From Patescibacteria group bacterium (GTDB lineage: Bacteria > Patescibacteriota > Patescibacteriia > Patescibacteriales > Patescibacteriaceae), in contig JAKJDQ010000001.1 of the NCBI GenBank assembly GCA_022705845.1, positions 1 through 42,265 on the forward strand: a stretch of DNA of 42,265 nucleotides. The letters are read 5' to 3'. This document shows, one piece after another, positions 35,872 through 42,006 of the stretch. The notes under the pieces are model-generated. The model was not told the DNA's origin, did not search any database, and saw only the letters and a program-made list of their open reading frames with translations. The number at the start of each line of letters is the position of its first letter. Position 1 is the stretch's first letter. The position numbers and the translations under genes are program-made.

Positions 35872-36033
35872 TTATAATAATGAAATTAGCGGTGTATTTT
35901 GGGCGAAATCCGAACTTTTTTGACGAAAATTCAGATTGCGACTTTTAATTGCCACCCTGTCTGCCTTCGGTGGACAACAGGCGGGTAAAAATTCATTGGT
36001 GGGGACGACACTCAGCCTCCATTCTTTTTGCTT
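35872..36033. other. GC-rich, apparently structured non-coding block (candidate ncRNA or leader of unknown family)
   Basis: No credible ORF. Hand count for 35941-36080 gives 68 G+C in 140 nt (about 49%), against about 27% in a 60-nt sample of the adjacent res gene. An imperfect stem tgtctgc/gtggaca closes on a cttcg loop (35958-35976), and there are several alternative CCACC/GGTGG pairings. Confidence 0.3.
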
Positions 36034-36080
36034 GCTTGTTCCTTGGCTTTGCCAAAAACTTTTCAGAAGGCGACGGGCTA
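36034..36080. repeat. Left arm of a 47-nt imperfect inverted repeat bracketing the R-M cassette
   Basis: The reverse complement of 36034-36080 is tagcccgtcgccttctgaaaagtttttggcaaagccaaggaacaagc. It matches 41812-41858 at 42/47 positions, with the first 21 identical. The inner end lies 28 nt from the res stop. Confidence 0.85.
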
Positions 36081-36108
36081 CAAAATGAAAATGAGAGAAA
36101 TTCATATT

Positions 36109-38712
36109 TTAAGAAAGTATTTTATTTTCTAAAGCTTCCTCAAATTCCTTTTTTAATTTCTCGTTATAAAAAGGCAAACCTATAAGTTTAAAATGTTTGT
36201 TTTCTAACTTCAAATCTGTCTCTGCCTTGTTTTCTAATGTAAGCAAAAAATCTTGCTTCCAACCTTCTTTAGAATTTTCAAATCTCCCCTGTTTATCTTT
36301 AAACTGATCGCCCTTAGGTTCAATAAAAATCTGGTAAATATTAACAACTTTATTCCTTTTTTTGAAAATCATTATGAAGTCCGGCTCAAAAGGTCTTCCC
36401 TCATCAAAATCAAATACCTGAAAAAATTTTTCATTGCGGAGTAAGGCTATATCCGAATATTTTTGTCTTAACTTTTCTATAAATCCATCAATAAAACTGA
36501 TAAATTTCTGTTCTTCGTCTGTGCCATAAAATTCAGTCTGGGCATACCAATCTTTTTTAGCTAAATTAACATCTTCCAATTCTTTATTTTGAACTTCATC
36601 AATATCTATTTTGATTTTTTTATCTTTAAAAACCTGCCTCAACATTCTGGCTTTAAATAGGCGGGTTCCCACAAATTCTGAGGTGTTAACCTTCGCTTTT
36701 TCTGATATATTTTTCAACACAAACAAAGCCATATCCAATTTCGCAATTGGCATTAGTTGGTTTAATTTGTCCTTTGGGCCTGAAATTTCTATCTCGACTC
36801 CACCCAAATAACGAGAAGAGGAAATGAATTCTCTAACTGATTTAATGTGTGGAAAATATCTTTTTAATGTTTCAAATTTATAGAACTCAAATTTATCTAA
36901 TGCGCCTCTAACTATATTCTCTCCAAAATCAGAAAGTTTATATTTTATTTTACTTTGCTCCACATCTTTTACGGATTTTGATTCCCCTTTTTCCTCAAAA
37001 ACAACATCTTCTCTAAGTTCACCGGTTCTCAGTTTATATGAGTAAGTGCGCTCAATTCTTGCATCATCTAAACTAAGAATCTCTGTCCTTGGGTTCGGCA
37101 CCCTATCATTTATGAAAACTACACCATTTTTCCAAAAGTCAGTCTTTTTAAAAGAATCCTTAATGAATAGGTCTTTTTGAACATATTTTTCTGGTATAAT
37201 TCCCATTTCTGTGAGAGTGCTTTTTATTTCATCAATATATTTAGGATTGTGTGCGCTGTGATAGTGCAATGTCTCCACAATTCGCAACTCGCTCTCAGTG
37301 TCTTTATCAAACTTCCTTTTATATTTATCCTCTGTTTCATCTAATTGAAATGGAAAATATCTTGCTCCTCTGCCAATAAGTTGCGCCTCTCCCATTGTGG
37401 TATTGCCCGGCTTGTATTTGCCATGAACATATTTACCATCGCGCGTATCATACAATCGGACAATGTCAAATAAATTTAACACATCCCATCCTTCATTTAG
37501 CATATTTACTGCAAAAATTGCCCTTATTTCATTATTTTTATTCTCTAGCGAATTTAATTTTAATTGTCTTTCTTCATCAATATTTTCTGAATCTAAAAGC
37601 ATCACTTTTTCTTTTGAGAAATCTTCTTGCAACTCCTTAATTAAATTTTCAAAAGCTATATTCTCTTTTTTAAAATAATCAAACGCTTTTTCTAAATCCA
37701 TTCCTTTTGCGCGCGAAGATATTTCTTGAATATCTTGTGTTTTTAAATGTTTAATTTTTGCCAAAAACCCTTCATAATTTTCTTTTGATTCTTTTATGCT
37801 TTTTGACTTAAAAAGAATAACTGGCTTTAAATGTAATTTATATTTTTCTGCTATCTTCCGGCGATATTGGCTTAAAATGACTGCTTGTAATGCTCTATCT
37901 AATGGTTCTAAATCTGCTTGTAAAACCTCTATCTCTTTTGAATATTTATCTAATCTAAATTGCCTTAAGTCATACTGAAAAATGATCTTCTCTTCATATT
38001 TTTCTCTAATATTTTGATTACTCAAATCAATGGTAGCGGTAAATTCCAATAAAATATTTTTAGTATTACTATTTAATATTTTTTGAACTGTATATTCCCA
38101 ACTTTTTTCTAATTCAAGCTCTTGCCTGCCTTGTTTTGTAATTGTTTGTAAATGGTGCGCCTCATCAGAAATTAAAACAATTTCTTTGTCAGCAAAATCT
38201 TCATAGGTCAAAGCGTCTTCTTTTGGAAAATTTAAACGAATATGCAATCCTTGAATTGTTGTAAAAAGGATATTTATATCATCTGGACTGGCTGTTTCAA
38301 AATTTTGAACTTCTTTTACAAAAACTTCTTTTCCGCCAAATTTAATTTTTGGCGCAAAAAGATATTTTTCAGATAAAGTATTTAAGAAATTGTCTTTTGT
38401 TTTCTCAATAATATTTACACTATTCACAAAAAAGATAAAATTGCGATAGCCTTGCTTGTAAAGCTGTAAAATGTTGGCAGCCATAATCAATGTTTTACCG
38501 CTTCCGGTCGCCATATGAAATAGTAAATGTGCCGGATAAACTCGTTTTTGATAATCTTTAAAATAAAAATCAAAACGGCCAAGAGCTTCCTTTTGATATT
38601 CCCGCAACTCAAGTTTTGGATTCAAATTTTGAGCAACTTCATCGTCAATCCGTGAAGTAAAAAAATTCTGCCCAAAAGAGTCTTTTATTGAATTAAAAGC
38701 TTCGTAAAGCAT
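36109..38712 (-). CDS. res: Type III restriction enzyme Res subunit (SF2 helicase + C-terminal PD-(D/E)xK nuclease)
   Basis: 867 aa with ELREYQ.EA, motif I HMATGSGKT, motif II LISDEAHH, motif III EFTAT and motif VI QLIGRGARY. The C-terminal nuclease motif is FEPDFIMIF...IFIEPKG. Confidence 0.85.
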   Translation of the reverse strand: MLYEAFNSIKDSFGQNFFTSRIDDEVAQNLNPKLELREYQKEALGRFDFYFKDYQKRVYPAHLLFHMATGSGKTLIMAANILQLYKQGYRNFIFFVNSVNIIEKTKDNFLNTLSEKYLFAPKIKFGGKEVFVKEVQNFETASPDDINILFTTIQGLHIRLNFPKEDALTYEDFADKEIVLISDEAHHLQTITKQGRQELELEKSWEYTVQKILNSNTKNILLEFTATIDLSNQNIREKYEEKIIFQYDLRQFRLDKYSKEIEVLQADLEPLDRALQAVILSQYRRKIAEKYKLHLKPVILFKSKSIKESKENYEGFLAKIKHLKTQDIQEISSRAKGMDLEKAFDYFKKENIAFENLIKELQEDFSKEKVMLLDSENIDEERQLKLNSLENKNNEIRAIFAVNMLNEGWDVLNLFDIVRLYDTRDGKYVHGKYKPGNTTMGEAQLIGRGARYFPFQLDETEDKYKRKFDKDTESELRIVETLHYHSAHNPKYIDEIKSTLTEMGIIPEKYVQKDLFIKDSFKKTDFWKNGVVFINDRVPNPRTEILSLDDARIERTYSYKLRTGELREDVVFEEKGESKSVKDVEQSKIKYKLSDFGENIVRGALDKFEFYKFETLKRYFPHIKSVREFISSSRYLGGVEIEISGPKDKLNQLMPIAKLDMALFVLKNISEKAKVNTSEFVGTRLFKARMLRQVFKDKKIKIDIDEVQNKELEDVNLAKKDWYAQTEFYGTDEEQKFISFIDGFIEKLRQKYSDIALLRNEKFFQVFDFDEGRPFEPDFIMIFKKRNKVVNIYQIFIEPKGDQFKDKQGRFENSKEGWKQDFLLTLENKAETDLKLENKHFKLIGLPFYNEKLKKEFEEALENKILS

Positions 38713-38714
38713 AG

Positions 38715-39470
38715 TTAAACTATCTCCTCCACTACGTCCTCAATTAGTTTCAAATATTTATTTAAATAGAAATAGTCCGGCTCACTTTTTGCAGCTCTAG
38801 TTAAAATTTCAAATTCAGGATTTTCTTTATTATTTCGGTCAAAAAGTATCAATCCAACGCCGAATTTAAGACATAACGATTCAATTCTTTTAATATCGGT
38901 TCCGCGAGCATCTTTTGGAATTACCAAATATACCTTATGACTAAAAAGTTTATAAGAACAAACTTGTCCAAATGCAGTAATAAGTTGATTTATGTCGGTT
39001 TTTATTTCGGCGCTAATGACTTCAATTGGCGGCTGAATATGGCCAATTCCCAAAATTCTATAAGTTCCAATAACATCTGGCGTGCCCCACCTATCTTGAA
39101 ATCTATTGCCGCCCAACGCTACTGCTTTTGTGCATTCTTCTAAATCATTTATTAAATAGTCTGCGAATAATTTATAAAAATCTTCTTCTTTAATTTTCGT
39201 TTCTTCTTCATGTTCGATTGCTCCAAATTCCTTCTCTTTCAAATATTTCCGTAAAATATATAATCCTTTTTCTGGTCTTATTACGTCTTTAACCTCTCCT
39301 TTATCAATTTTTTGCTTAAATTCCCAAATAGTTCCGTGAATCGTATTTATTTTTGTATCCGGCAATAATTCACTTATGCTCCTCATTAAATCAGCATAAC
39401 GAATTCCTTTCGGTGAATTCTCTAAAATTTCCCTCGCAGTTTTAATTATTTGTTCTCGTTGTGTGGTCAT
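38715..39470 (-). CDS. Uncharacterised protein: N-terminal winged-helix (HARE-HTH/Mrr_N-like) + C-terminal PD-(D/E)xK nuclease-fold domain
   Basis: 251 aa. Residues ~5-75 have a wHTH-like pattern (IIKTAREILENSPKGIRYADLMRSISELLP......HGTIW.........V.R.EKGLYILRKY). The C-terminal half has E111/E112, GTP-D132-VIG, ISA-E155-I-K157 and Q169..Y173. Packed 12 nt after mod and 2 nt before res. Confidence 0.6.
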   Translation of the reverse strand: MTTQREQIIKTAREILENSPKGIRYADLMRSISELLPDTKINTIHGTIWEFKQKIDKGEVKDVIRPEKGLYILRKYLKEKEFGAIEHEEETKIKEEDFYKLFADYLINDLEECTKAVALGGNRFQDRWGTPDVIGTYRILGIGHIQPPIEVISAEIKTDINQLITAFGQVCSYKLFSHKVYLVIPKDARGTDIKRIESLCLKFGVGLILFDRNNKENPEFEILTRAAKSEPDYFYLNKYLKLIEDVVEEIV

Positions 39471-39482
39471 AAATTCTAAAAA

Positions 39483-41495
39483 TTAATTTCCATAAAACTC
39501 TCTATTTATTTTTTTATCTTCTTCATCAACTCCATATTCCTCGTCGTCAATTTCACTATAATTGACATAAAGATGGTTTTTGTCTAAACATTCCAGCAAG
39601 AATCTTCTTTGGTTTTCAATAGATAACTCTTCAAAATCTTTGGCGTTTTCATCAATGGCTTTTATATCAACTTTATAGCTTAAAAATACCTTTTCTTTCA
39701 TTATTTTCCATAATTGTTTCAATTCTTCTTTTGTTTTTGCTTTTTGAATTTTTTCAACAAAATTCTCATTCCATTTCGCAAGCTCTAAGTAAACAAAATC
39801 ACCCCCACCTTTCCAACCGACTTGTTTTGAAATGCCAGTTTGATCGCCATTAATAACATTGTTTAATCTAACTACCGCACTATTTTCTCCATAATCAAGT
39901 TGTTCTACTCCTATATACTGCCTCCCCATTTTATGAGCAACAGCACAAGTTGTGCCGGTACCCATAAAGAAATCTAAAACTAAATCACCTTCTTTAGTAA
40001 CTAAATCCAATACTATTCGAAGTAATTCTTCCGGTTTTTTCCCGTATTTCAGCGTTACACCACCCTCGTTAGCAATTCCCTGCCACAAATCTTTTGAAAT
40101 AAGATTGGTTAGTTGTTCTAGTTTAAATATCATTTTCTTTCTTCCTTGCTCTTTTATGACGGCATTTTCTCTTAAAAACAAAATACCTTCTTTTTTATAA
40201 ACATAATATTTCATCTTTTGCCCTTTATACTTACCTTTAGTTGGGGTATAATAATACGAGAACAAATCATTATCCGGTATCAATTCCTTTATTTTTTGTT
40301 CAATTCCGCCAGACAAAGTAGCAGTCCTAAATATTTTTTCAAAATTTTGAACATAAAATTCACTTACATTTTTGATTTCTAGAAAGTTTATTTTGCGAAT
40401 TACGTAGTCTTTCATTCTTCTGATCTCTATTTCCCCATTTTGCGTTTCTAATTTGCCAATTTTGTCTCCTTCGACACCTTCCGATTCAAAAAGCAAATTA
40501 TAACTTTCTATGGTCTTAGACTTTTCATCTACCATCTCTTTTTCTACTAAATTATTTATAGCTTCTATATCTTTTTTCCTTCCATAAACTAAAATATTTT
40601 CTTTAACATCGAAAATTAATCCGCCAGTTGCTACACCGGAAGGTGCTTTTATTTTTATTGCAATACTTGATATGAAATTTTCACGTCCAAATACTTCATC
40701 CATCAAAACCTTCAAATAAGCATGTTCCCGGTCGTCACATTGTACAAAAATAACCCCATCATTTTTTAATAAATTTTTAGCTACTTCTAACCTATTTTTC
40801 ATAAAAGTAAGCCAAGTAGAATGATTGAATGCATCATTATATTTAAAATCATCATTTCCGGTATTATACGGTGGATCAATGTAAATCAGTTTTACTTTTC
40901 CGGCAAAGCGTTTTTTAAGAGAGTGGATAGCTAAAAGATTATTACCTTTGATAATAAGATTATCTTTGATATCTCCGTTTTCGTCAGTTTTGAAATTATC
41001 TAATTTATGTTCACCATTTTTATCAATTCTTTTGGCGTTGGTAAAAACTTTGGGGTCAAGTAAACGGCTAATCTCATCCGGAGCCAATATTTCATTCCAG
41101 AAAATTTCATCTCGTTTTTGCTCTTCTTTTGTCATTCCACCCTCAAGAATACAATCTTTATAAGGCCAAGAAAGCACAACTTCTTTCTTCTCACTAATAA
41201 ATTCACCTTTTTCATCAACGAGTCCAATTTTATTTTTAAAAGTAGTATAACTATCTGGTAAAAATTGTTTATTGGAAACAAACTTAATAAACTTATCCTT
41301 GTCAAAAATTGTAGCTTTTCCAATTTGCTTAAAAAATACCGCTTTCATCTGCTCGTCTGATAAAAGACTCTCAATCATGTCCTTATCTAGTTTTATCGCT
41401 AACTCAATAACTTTATTCTTTAAAAGTTCGCCCTCGCTCACAAGGCGTTCATCTTTTTGAAGTAGATTTTTTAAATTGTCCAATATGCTTTCCAT
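39483..41495 (-). CDS. mod: Type III (beta-class) DNA methyltransferase Mod subunit, N6-adenine/N4-cytosine type
   Basis: 670 aa. Motif IV LIYIDPPYNTGND precedes motif I FFMGTGTTCAVAHKMGRQYIGVE (beta-class order), with a long variable (TRD) region between them and an N-terminal region typical of Type III Mod. Confidence 0.9.
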   Translation of the reverse strand: MESILDNLKNLLQKDERLVSEGELLKNKVIELAIKLDKDMIESLLSDEQMKAVFFKQIGKATIFDKDKFIKFVSNKQFLPDSYTTFKNKIGLVDEKGEFISEKKEVVLSWPYKDCILEGGMTKEEQKRDEIFWNEILAPDEISRLLDPKVFTNAKRIDKNGEHKLDNFKTDENGDIKDNLIIKGNNLLAIHSLKKRFAGKVKLIYIDPPYNTGNDDFKYNDAFNHSTWLTFMKNRLEVAKNLLKNDGVIFVQCDDREHAYLKVLMDEVFGRENFISSIAIKIKAPSGVATGGLIFDVKENILVYGRKKDIEAINNLVEKEMVDEKSKTIESYNLLFESEGVEGDKIGKLETQNGEIEIRRMKDYVIRKINFLEIKNVSEFYVQNFEKIFRTATLSGGIEQKIKELIPDNDLFSYYYTPTKGKYKGQKMKYYVYKKEGILFLRENAVIKEQGRKKMIFKLEQLTNLISKDLWQGIANEGGVTLKYGKKPEELLRIVLDLVTKEGDLVLDFFMGTGTTCAVAHKMGRQYIGVEQLDYGENSAVVRLNNVINGDQTGISKQVGWKGGGDFVYLELAKWNENFVEKIQKAKTKEELKQLWKIMKEKVFLSYKVDIKAIDENAKDFEELSIENQRRFLLECLDKNHLYVNYSEIDDEEYGVDEEDKKINREFYGN

Positions 41496-41499
41496 AGTT

Positions 41500-41709
41500 T
41501 TATTTAATTAAATCATCAATACCGACATCTAAAGCATCAGCGATTTTTTTGATGGTTTTAATTCTAGGGTCTGGTGTAGCCCCAGACTCAATTTTTGTAA
41601 TTGTATGTAAAGTAATACCAGCAAGTTTAGATAACTTGTCTTGGGAAATACCCAGTTTTGCTCGGTATCTTTTTATATTTTTTGCGATAGATGACATTTC
41701 CTTTGACAT
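41500..41709 (-). CDS. XRE-family helix-turn-helix protein (candidate controller/C-protein of the R-M operon)
   Basis: 69 aa with I+.+R...G.SQ..L....G......I..IE.G...P....I.KIA.AL.V..D.L, i.e. HTH_3. First gene of the operon, 4 nt upstream of mod. Confidence 0.85.
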   Translation of the reverse strand: MSKEMSSIAKNIKRYRAKLGISQDKLSKLAGITLHTITKIESGATPDPRIKTIKKIADALDVGIDDLIK

Positions 41710-41765
41710 TATAATATAATTTTACTATAACAACTTTACGGTCATTATTACTATTTGCTATTATT

Positions 41766-41794
41766 AGTATATGAAATCTATAGTGGAAAGTCAA
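41766..41794 (-). promoter_or_regulatory. Candidate sigma70-type promoter of the R-M operon (TTGACT-17-TATACT)
   Basis: Minus-strand -35 ttgact (41789-41794), exactly 17-nt spacer, -10 tatact (41766-41771), about 57 nt upstream of the HTH ATG (41709). An AT-rich dyad TACTA-N11-TAGTA (41749-41769) overlaps the -10. Confidence 0.5.
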
Positions 41795-41811
41795 ACAAAA
41801 TTAGTAAATAA

Positions 41812-41858
41812 TAGCCCGTCGCCTTCTGAAAAATTTTTGACAAAGCGAAAGAGCAAGC
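41812..41858. repeat. Right arm of the 47-nt imperfect inverted repeat bracketing the R-M cassette
   Basis: tagcccgtcgccttctgaaaaatttttgacaaagcgaaagagcaagc, 42/47 identical to the reverse complement of 36034-36080. The inner end lies 17 nt upstream of the -35 box. Confidence 0.85.
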
Positions 41859-41920
41859 GGACAGAAACACTGGGCGGGATTATTCAAAATCCCAGCCAAA
41901 GTCCAAAAAGTGATAATTAG

Positions 41921-42006
41921 CGGAGGAGAAGGGATTCGAACCCTTGATGCCATATAGGCATAGCGCTTTTCGAGAGCGCCCGATTCAACCACTCTCGCAC
42001 TCCTCC
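41921..42006 (-). tRNA. tRNA-Ser (anticodon CGA), class II long variable arm
   Basis: Reverse complement: acceptor ggaggag/ctcctcc, anticodon stem gcgct/agcgc with loop ct-CGA-aa, variable arm tatgcc-tata-ggcatc, T arm aaggg-ttcgaat-ccctt, discriminator G. No encoded CCA. The 3' end faces the R-M cassette. Confidence 0.9.

Follow-up and report, generated by a model that had tools for sequence, protein, structure and literature searches.

What does a gene for a putative winged-helix nuclease do between the two genes of a Type III restriction-modification (RM) enzyme? The question was raised by the window analysed here, the whole 42,265-nucleotide (nt) stretch of contig JAKJDQ010000001.1 from a Patescibacteria group bacterium (assembly GCA_022705845.1), in which four minus-strand open reading frames (ORFs) form one operon. 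An XRE-family helix-turn-helix (HTH) regulator of 69 amino acids (aa) is the first gene (41500..41709), followed by the Type III Mod, a beta-class N6-adenine methyltransferase of 670 aa (39483..41495), by an accessory protein of 251 aa, here called X (38715..39470, winged helix at ~39240-39470 and PD-(D/E)xK domain at ~38718-39194), and by the Type III Res of 867 aa (36109..38712), a protein of the HI_1054-type family with a superfamily 2 (SF2) helicase and its own C-terminal PD...ExK nuclease. The ORF coordinates leave gaps of 4, 12 and 2 nt between XRE, Mod, X and Res, which agrees with the four-gene operon described in the initial annotation, and domain, alignment and model support identify all four ORFs as real genes and none as a chance ORF. 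That annotation had further suggested that the locus may be a three-enzyme defence variant. We see about an even chance that X is rather an autonomous accessory DNA endonuclease, a Type IV-like second defence layer and no Type III subunit, and the locus as a whole is best explained as a horizontally acquired, low-GC Type III RM cassette in a tRNA-Ser-adjacent defence hotspot.

X could not be assigned to a family by sequence. Pfam, PADLOC and PHROG gave no family match, the NCBIfam model sce7726 was matched below threshold (E 0.02), and searches of these collections and of PDB returned nothing significant beyond a Rok-type winged helix. AlphaFold2 modelled the whole protein with a predicted local distance difference test score (pLDDT) of 93.0, and residues 88-251 with 95.7 (predicted template modelling score, pTM, 0.91). 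The N-terminal domain (~residues 1-77) is a winged helix of the Rok/HARE-like kind, modelled with confidence: a profile of the family matched the Rok DNA-binding domain 5zuz (E 2.9e-4), Pfam found WH_Rok in 18/48 and HARE-HTH in 3/48 family members, and Foldseek placed the domain with Rok, RNA polymerase delta and Fur-family winged helices. The C-terminal domain is a divergent PD-(D/E)xK fold, with the alpha-beta-beta-beta-alpha-beta core and the acidic-acidic-lysine motif of that superfamily (D132, E155, K157). In an alignment of 48 sequences, E95, Y99, W128, P131, D132, G135, E155, K157, Q169 and Y173 were conserved at 90% or more. The two domains and the three core residues named for the middle protein beforehand are thus supported by alignment and AlphaFold models. 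The dN/dS of X against seven relatives was 0.04-0.10; X is under purifying selection and is therefore a functional gene.

The family is large and occurs in both bacteria and archaea. We found 2210 X homologs in a 90%-clustered collection, in which the named ones were all called 'hypothetical protein'; they form 773 clusters at 50% identity and were found at 373 places among 185,579 GTDB representative genomes of many bacterial and archaeal phyla. None was present in 50,697 phage records, and the only plasmid match was a distant, unannotated one on a Novosphingobium megaplasmid. Architectural variants were observed among the relatives P0122, P0123, P0126, P0198, P0214 and P0251; in these the winged helices are in tandem, an XRE-HTH is fused to the N-terminus, a classical HARE-HTH is placed ahead of the usual domains, or a ParB-like domain and a coiled coil take the place of the winged helix. 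Such interchange of DNA readers on a nuclease is typical of restriction-type enzymes.

Mod and Res, as judged from their sequences, are a standard, conventional Type III enzyme. Mod matched Pfam N6_N4_Mtase (E 7e-40) and TypeIII_RM_meth (E 4e-19), PADLOC MTase_III (E 9e-194) and the EcoP15I Mod (4zcf, E 5e-24), and has DPPY (~residues 207-210) before FxGxG (~509-514) with a variable target-recognition domain (TRD) in between. Res matched Pfam ResIII (E 2.7e-31) and, over residues 31-865, the PADLOC REase_III model PDLC03651 (E 2.6e-142); its translation contains GSGKT, DEAH, QLIGRGAR (QxxGRGxR) and a C-terminal EPD...EPK, and an identical protein carries precomputed Pfam HI_1054_N and HI_1054, whereas solved structures, the EcoP15I entry 4zcf included, gave no sequence match to Res. 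The Type III identity of both proteins was therefore supported by full-length models as well as by motifs, and the operon has the two nuclease modules formerly attributed to it, one in X and one at the Res C-terminus. The Mod domains and their motif order, the Res helicase motifs with a terminal PD-(D/E)xK, and the mod-to-res order are shared with classical Type III systems (EcoP1I, EcoP15I and the H. influenzae HI1054-1056 type), and the 2-nt gap before res is that of EcoP1 (PMC3874151). In contrast to these systems the window has four genes rather than two, with XRE leading and the X gene between mod and res, so that res does not immediately follow mod; a review of the class presents Type III systems as having two genes, separated in EcoP1 by 2 bp, and says nothing of a controller or of another gene (PMC3874151).

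X does not stand in for a nuclease that Res has lost. This candidate role was rejected, as the window Res and a second partner Res family (PDF...DPK) both retain the C-terminal PD...(D/E)xK motif. Plasmid relatives of the window Res family occur as plain mod-res (S. salivarius), mod-145aa-res (Chryseobacterium) and PD-(D/E)xK-mod-res (Peribacillus). When the window Mod (39483-41495) was compared with those of loci L087, L089, L092, L093 and L007, at least three Mod alleles were distinguished (556, 646-647 and 670 aa), whose ends are near-identical and whose differences are limited to the central target-recognition region, a case of specificity shuffling. An X of 100% identity and the 867-aa Res accompany all three alleles (same lineage, sister contigs), and X is therefore not matched to the sequence specificity of Mod.

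All X relatives of at least 67% identity with enough flanking sequence belong to Type III operons, where X mostly lies immediately before res, and the preferential mod/res linkage of the middle gene, which the initial annotation had made a test of its reading, is real. The arrangements are Mod-X-Res (L008, L009), Mod-268aa-X-Res (L007), Mod-296aa-X-Res (L006), RhuM/Fic-X-Res (L110), XRE-RhuM/Fic-X-Res (L010) and Mod-X-66aa-RhuM/Fic-Res (L111, L112); L023, L026 and L047, at 55-58% identity but grouping with the closer relatives in the tree, have Mod-gene-X with Res adjacent or nearby. Both gene orders occur, with Res-X-Mod in L024 and Res-X-GmrSD in L030. X has Res partners from three PADLOC REase_III families (PDLC03651, PDLC03654 and PDLC03647), of which an iterated search seeded with the window Res missed those other than its own, and these were found via extra seeds and Pfam. 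Between the window cassette and L008, L009, L010, L013 and L014, blastn homology is confined to the X gene (73-81% identity), starting 2-17 nt before its ATG and ending ~22 nt before its stop, while the mod and res genes that flank X in these loci are unrelated to those of the window at the DNA level. In L007 the extra gene sits exactly in the 12-nt mod-X spacer. X is thus passed on its own, as a one-gene module, from one Type III operon to another that is otherwise unrelated. The same slot holds other cargo: HEPN AbiU2 (L047), Schlafen AlbA_2 (L014), RhuM/Fic (L010) and a gene with a weak DUF3800 match (L007), and AbiU2-type HEPN and RhuM/Fic genes have been described as RM-embedded second-line effectors (PMC3710099). 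X also outlasts its RM system and persists beside decayed res: at L108 and L109 it comes after a res remnant of 95 aa and no res lies downstream, and at L003-L005 the genes after X are a 140-aa ORF and insertion sequence (IS) genes. We also observed two RM operons back to back in L010:1-11700, one a plain XRE-Mod-Res and the other the XRE-RhuM/Fic-X-Res operon, whose res is split and which has no mod of its own.

Across the family as a whole, 39 loci have 3 kb or more of sequence to either side of X and were counted as well flanked. Screening their neighbours for N6_N4-type methylases and ResIII, we found either gene within 1.5 kb of X at 10/39 and neither at 29/39 (~74%). Among the downstream neighbours of the family, ResIII accounted for 7/73, the others being heterogeneous and often housekeeping genes. 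In a neighbour-joining tree the embedded copies form one clade plus a small Res-X clade, and the other clades are mostly solitary. Type I components did not recur among the immediate neighbours of X. In L029, L044 and L084 a small N6_N4 methylase is the direct neighbour of X, and the RM association of X is not limited to Type III, because in L022:5235-8717 it directly follows a complete Type II system (XRE, N6_N4 methyltransferase and TdeIII endonuclease). An obligate three-enzyme system is not supported, and the idea is weakened by the ~74% of copies without Res or a Mod-type methylase, by the three Mod alleles and the single-gene exchange, by the sharing of the mod-res slot with RhuM/Fic, AbiU2 and Schlafen, and by close plasmid Res relatives that are plain mod-res.

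Two further observations involve archaeal genomes. In L057:1829-4006 and L059:8817-10997, from archaeal genomes labelled Methanosarcinales and Methanobacteriota, a solitary X adjoins purL, a conserved synteny in a housekeeping context. In addition, near-identical X genes carry assignments to the archaeon Ca. Argoarchaeum ethanivorans (Eth-Arch1, L053) and to its partner Desulfobacteraceae Eth-SRB1 (L064 and L072, on two 1.3-kb contigs), which reflects either cross-domain transfer or mis-binning.

We favour an autonomous, second-line endonuclease because X combines a reader with a nuclease, mostly has no Res or Mod-type methylase nearby, and keeps defence company (AbiU2, RhuM/Fic, Schlafen, GmrSD, TdeIII and OLD-like genes). 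Type III enzymes cleave when the ATP-using Mod-Res complex, having communicated between inversely oriented unmethylated asymmetric sites, cuts the DNA. In the window, Mod would hemimethylate its asymmetric site and Mod-Res would cut as a conventional Type III enzyme, with XRE autoregulating the single operon promoter via the repeats that bracket it. X, on this reading, is cargo with no promoter of its own: it has recombined repeatedly, as one gene, into the space between mod and res in various Type III operons, and its expression would rely on read-through and on translational coupling. The winged helix would recognise a feature of the DNA independent of the sequence that Mod targets, such as a modified base or a pattern of methylation on phage DNA that evades Type III cleavage. 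The PD-(D/E)xK domain would then cut, so that the cell would gain another defence layer of Type IV-like character. If the reader required sites methylated on both strands, or modified in another way, it would be compatible with a Type III Mod, which methylates one strand only (PMC3874151); DpnI-type winged helices prefer fully methylated ApT.

A parallel exists with the Type IV winged-helix fusions (Mrr; DpnI-like PD-(D/E)XK-wH, wH-GIY-YIG and wH-HNH), which likewise join a winged-helix (wH) reader to an endonuclease domain, and for which stand-alone occurrence served as a criterion for the Type IV label (PMC11037411). The stand-alone share of the X family, 74% without Res or a Mod-type methylase, compares with 87% without a DNA methylase in that study. 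Unlike those fusions, one X clade, that of X itself, is co-operonic with an m6A methylase; the order of domains in X, winged helix and then PD-(D/E)xK, is the reverse of that in DpnI, and its winged helix resembles those of Rok, RNA polymerase delta (HARE) and Fur instead.

Several points weigh against this reading. Mrr_N and Mrr_cat were absent from the Pfam hits at E up to 1, both in the 48 members and in X itself, so that X shares with Mrr-type enzymes just the general architecture of a winged helix and a PD-(D/E)xK domain, and neither PADLOC nor Type IV family models matched X. The copies counted as solitary may adjoin methylases of types other than those screened. The MmcB-like and weak PDB matches of its predicted structure would fit a repair or structure-specific nuclease equally well. 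What the data show is how the operon and its proteins are built, and that X is exchanged as a module, is under purifying selection and does not depend on the Mod allele; its nuclease activity, substrate and defence role are what we infer. Further, the clade to which X belongs is always found within Type III operons, usually 2-8 nt from res, a Type III specificity that exceeds what a generic defence-island passenger would show and leaves room for functional coupling.

Such coupling would be expected if the Type III-embedded clade is a dedicated third component, which works with or guards Mod-Res and colonises mod-res junctions specifically; X might then sense phage inactivation of the enzyme or supply a second cleavage activity. 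We regard this as possible but doubtful. If true, it would define a new two-nuclease Type III subtype together with a widespread wH-PD-(D/E)xK defence family in bacteria and archaea, and X, if coupled in this way, would be the first guard or accessory subunit to be described among Type III enzymes.

A particular form of coupling follows the logic of PrrC: X would be held inactive by Mod-Res, be freed by phage anti-restriction, and degrade DNA, leading to abortive infection. The position of X, usually 2-8 nt from res or overlapping it, its staying beside res when the gene order is reversed, and the lack of recurring Type I neighbours speak for a guard, as does the co-cargo of HEPN AbiU2 and RhuM/Fic, classes proposed as second-line RM-coupled effectors (PMC3710099). 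However, the majority of the family occurs by itself and retains the catalytic residues, so an RM complex is not generally needed for X to be tolerated; RhuM/Fic separates X from res in L111 and L112; X persists where res is truncated; and with three unrelated Res families as partners a specific protein interface is unlikely. We consider a guard unlikely. X does share with the RM-embedded effectors (PrrC and RloC in Type I; HEPN AbiU2/AbiJ; RhuM-Fic/Doc) the placement of a non-RM gene inside an RM operon, and its slot is common to AbiU2, RhuM/Fic and Schlafen in sister operons; the differences are that X is a winged HTH joined to PD-(D/E)xK and not a HEPN RNase or Fic toxin, and that its hosts are Type III whereas theirs are Type I. 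PrrC and RloC have a HEPN RNase fused to an ABC ATPase, but Pfam and the AlphaFold model revealed neither a HEPN nor an ATPase domain in X, whose likeness to them is positional only.

The rather improbable alternative that X is an MmcB-like repair or structure-specific nuclease, serving genome maintenance and, in RM operons, limiting or processing self-inflicted damage, starts from the predicted structure. The best Foldseek matches of the nuclease domain were phage models called 'MmcB-like DNA repair protein' (E 8e-8 to 1.7e-6); PDB matches were weaker (best E 4e-3) and comprised AF2093, XisH, MspJI, YaeQ, SfsA and Mus81/XPF, and UL24 was also among the matches. Many members lie amid housekeeping genes, some of them syntenic, such as the copies next to purL. 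MmcB-like and sce7726-like PD-(D/E)xK proteins are thus the closest predicted-structure relatives of the X nuclease domain, with the weak sce7726 match pointing the same way; but there is no MmcB-like Pfam match or other significant match to a sequence family, and X differs from them in its added N-terminal winged helix and its defence-type context. The linkage of X to Type III and beta-class methylases and to GmrSD, TdeIII, OLD-like and STAND genes is far above chance, and the horizontal exchange of the single gene across phyla, with nucleotide identities of 75-81%, is what defence cargo typically shows; both speak against a repair role. Finally, a sequence-specific restriction endonuclease or second regulator matched to Mod, in a true three-enzyme RM system, would agree with the DNA-binding winged HTH and with the X copies beside small N6_N4 methylases or after the Type II pair of L022, but is very improbable and was largely excluded, the endonuclease version being rejected on the identical X with three TRD alleles and the 29/39 well-flanked copies without a nearby Mod-type (N6_N4) methylase gene, and that of a mere regulator being at odds with the conserved catalytic residues.

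We regard the arrangement, which the initial annotation could not place among described systems, as a variant of a known theme, because accessory genes in RM operons, and the multi-layer defence logic they imply, have been described (PMC3710099). What appears to be new is the X cargo itself, the large unnamed wH-PD-(D/E)xK family to which it belongs, and its gene-precise shuffling among unrelated Type III operons, in company with cargo of known abortive-infection classes. Second-line effectors thus have a slot in Type III operons much like the one for cargo in Type I loci, and a family present in bacteria and archaea has so far been without an informative name and without a model in Pfam, PADLOC or PHROG. 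If X is a defence nuclease, it would represent a new Type IV-like or RM-coupled family and offer a handle on layered immunity in the Candidate Phyla Radiation (CPR)/Patescibacteria.

The regulator and promoter of the operon were examined in the same way. XRE matched Pfam HTH_3 (E 5.9e-15), and an XRE gene heads every variant of the window cassette and also other RM operons in L010 and L022. The initial annotation had called it a C-protein; the part of this claim that stood is that a small HTH_3/XRE protein leads the RM operon, 4 nt upstream of mod, as in Type II systems with C proteins, which also share inverted repeats around the promoter. In contrast, specific similarity to C proteins is weak: PADLOC Control_protein was matched at E 3.8e-6 or worse, behind HTH_VI and capH, and the nearest solved relatives are the 434 repressor, SinR and HipB, with C.BclI only at E ~1e-3. 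'Controller protein' is thus a generic label for XRE, used by analogy only. The predicted TTGACT-17-TATACT promoter is present on the minus strand at 41766..41794 with 10/12 matches, and the call is supported because both hexamers are kept, with a differing spacer, in the diverged homologous cassettes of L087 and L010, not by the scan count, which in this AT-rich region showed no excess of promoter-like sites (21 vs 27.6 in shuffled sequence). A candidate operator at 41757..41815 consists of a 9-nt perfect inverted repeat, GCTATTATT / AATAATAGC, bracketing the XRE promoter, with an extra copy of TAGTAATAAT in the same region; it has no established C-box consensus, and by eye a similar bracket with changed bases surrounds the promoter of L087. 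These repeats suggest that XRE is a probable autoregulator of the single promoter. Since XRE precedes both mod and res under one promoter, it alone cannot delay res relative to mod.

The cassette also has well-defined boundaries. An inverted repeat, with its left arm at 36019..36080 (plus strand) and its right arm at 41812..41873 (minus strand), brackets the interval 36081-41811 exactly; the arms are 82% complementary, the inner 21 nt of the left arm are identical to those of the right one, and this perfect core (TTTTCAGAAGGCGACGGGCTA) has no other copy in the window. The right arm comes immediately after a tRNA-Ser(cga) gene (41920..42006, minus strand), the landmark of the insertion hotspot, and weaker repeat similarity extends outward to ~35925 and ~41915. 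Locus L107:1-6740, compared with window positions 41812-42006, has the same tRNA-Ser and right arm but a different cassette starting from the same junction, which encodes a 1065-aa PLD and SNF2-helicase protein and an Eco57I/MmeI-type methyltransferase. Defence genes are thus exchangeable cargo at this hotspot, and its mobility is indicated by the low GC content of the cassette (30-32% vs 35-41% across most of the remaining window), the flanking inverted repeat and the alternative cassette of L107. Rfam matched nothing but the tRNA-Ser, and the reading of the repeats as a known RNA was rejected. Transposon ends were considered for the flanking repeat and rejected, as there is no transposase inside, the inner end is the best conserved, and the cargo at the L107 junction differs. 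With the cassette removed, the two perfect cores would pair into a GC-rich hairpin with runs of A and T on its flanks, which suggests insertion into a terminator-like palindrome; we take the repeat for a hotspot boundary, which may be a split hairpin or terminator.

A 77-aa ORF of the public annotations (window 35872-36105) overlies the left repeat arm, has no Pfam match and is probably not a gene. In the sister contigs L088:4694-7923 and L090:4375-6722, a 60-aa ORF past the left repeat replaces the 67-aa one of the window. Beyond it, both loci have an additional AAA_5 ATPase (565 aa) and a 510-aa protein, inside whose gene the contigs end, a pair that is possibly McrBC-like.

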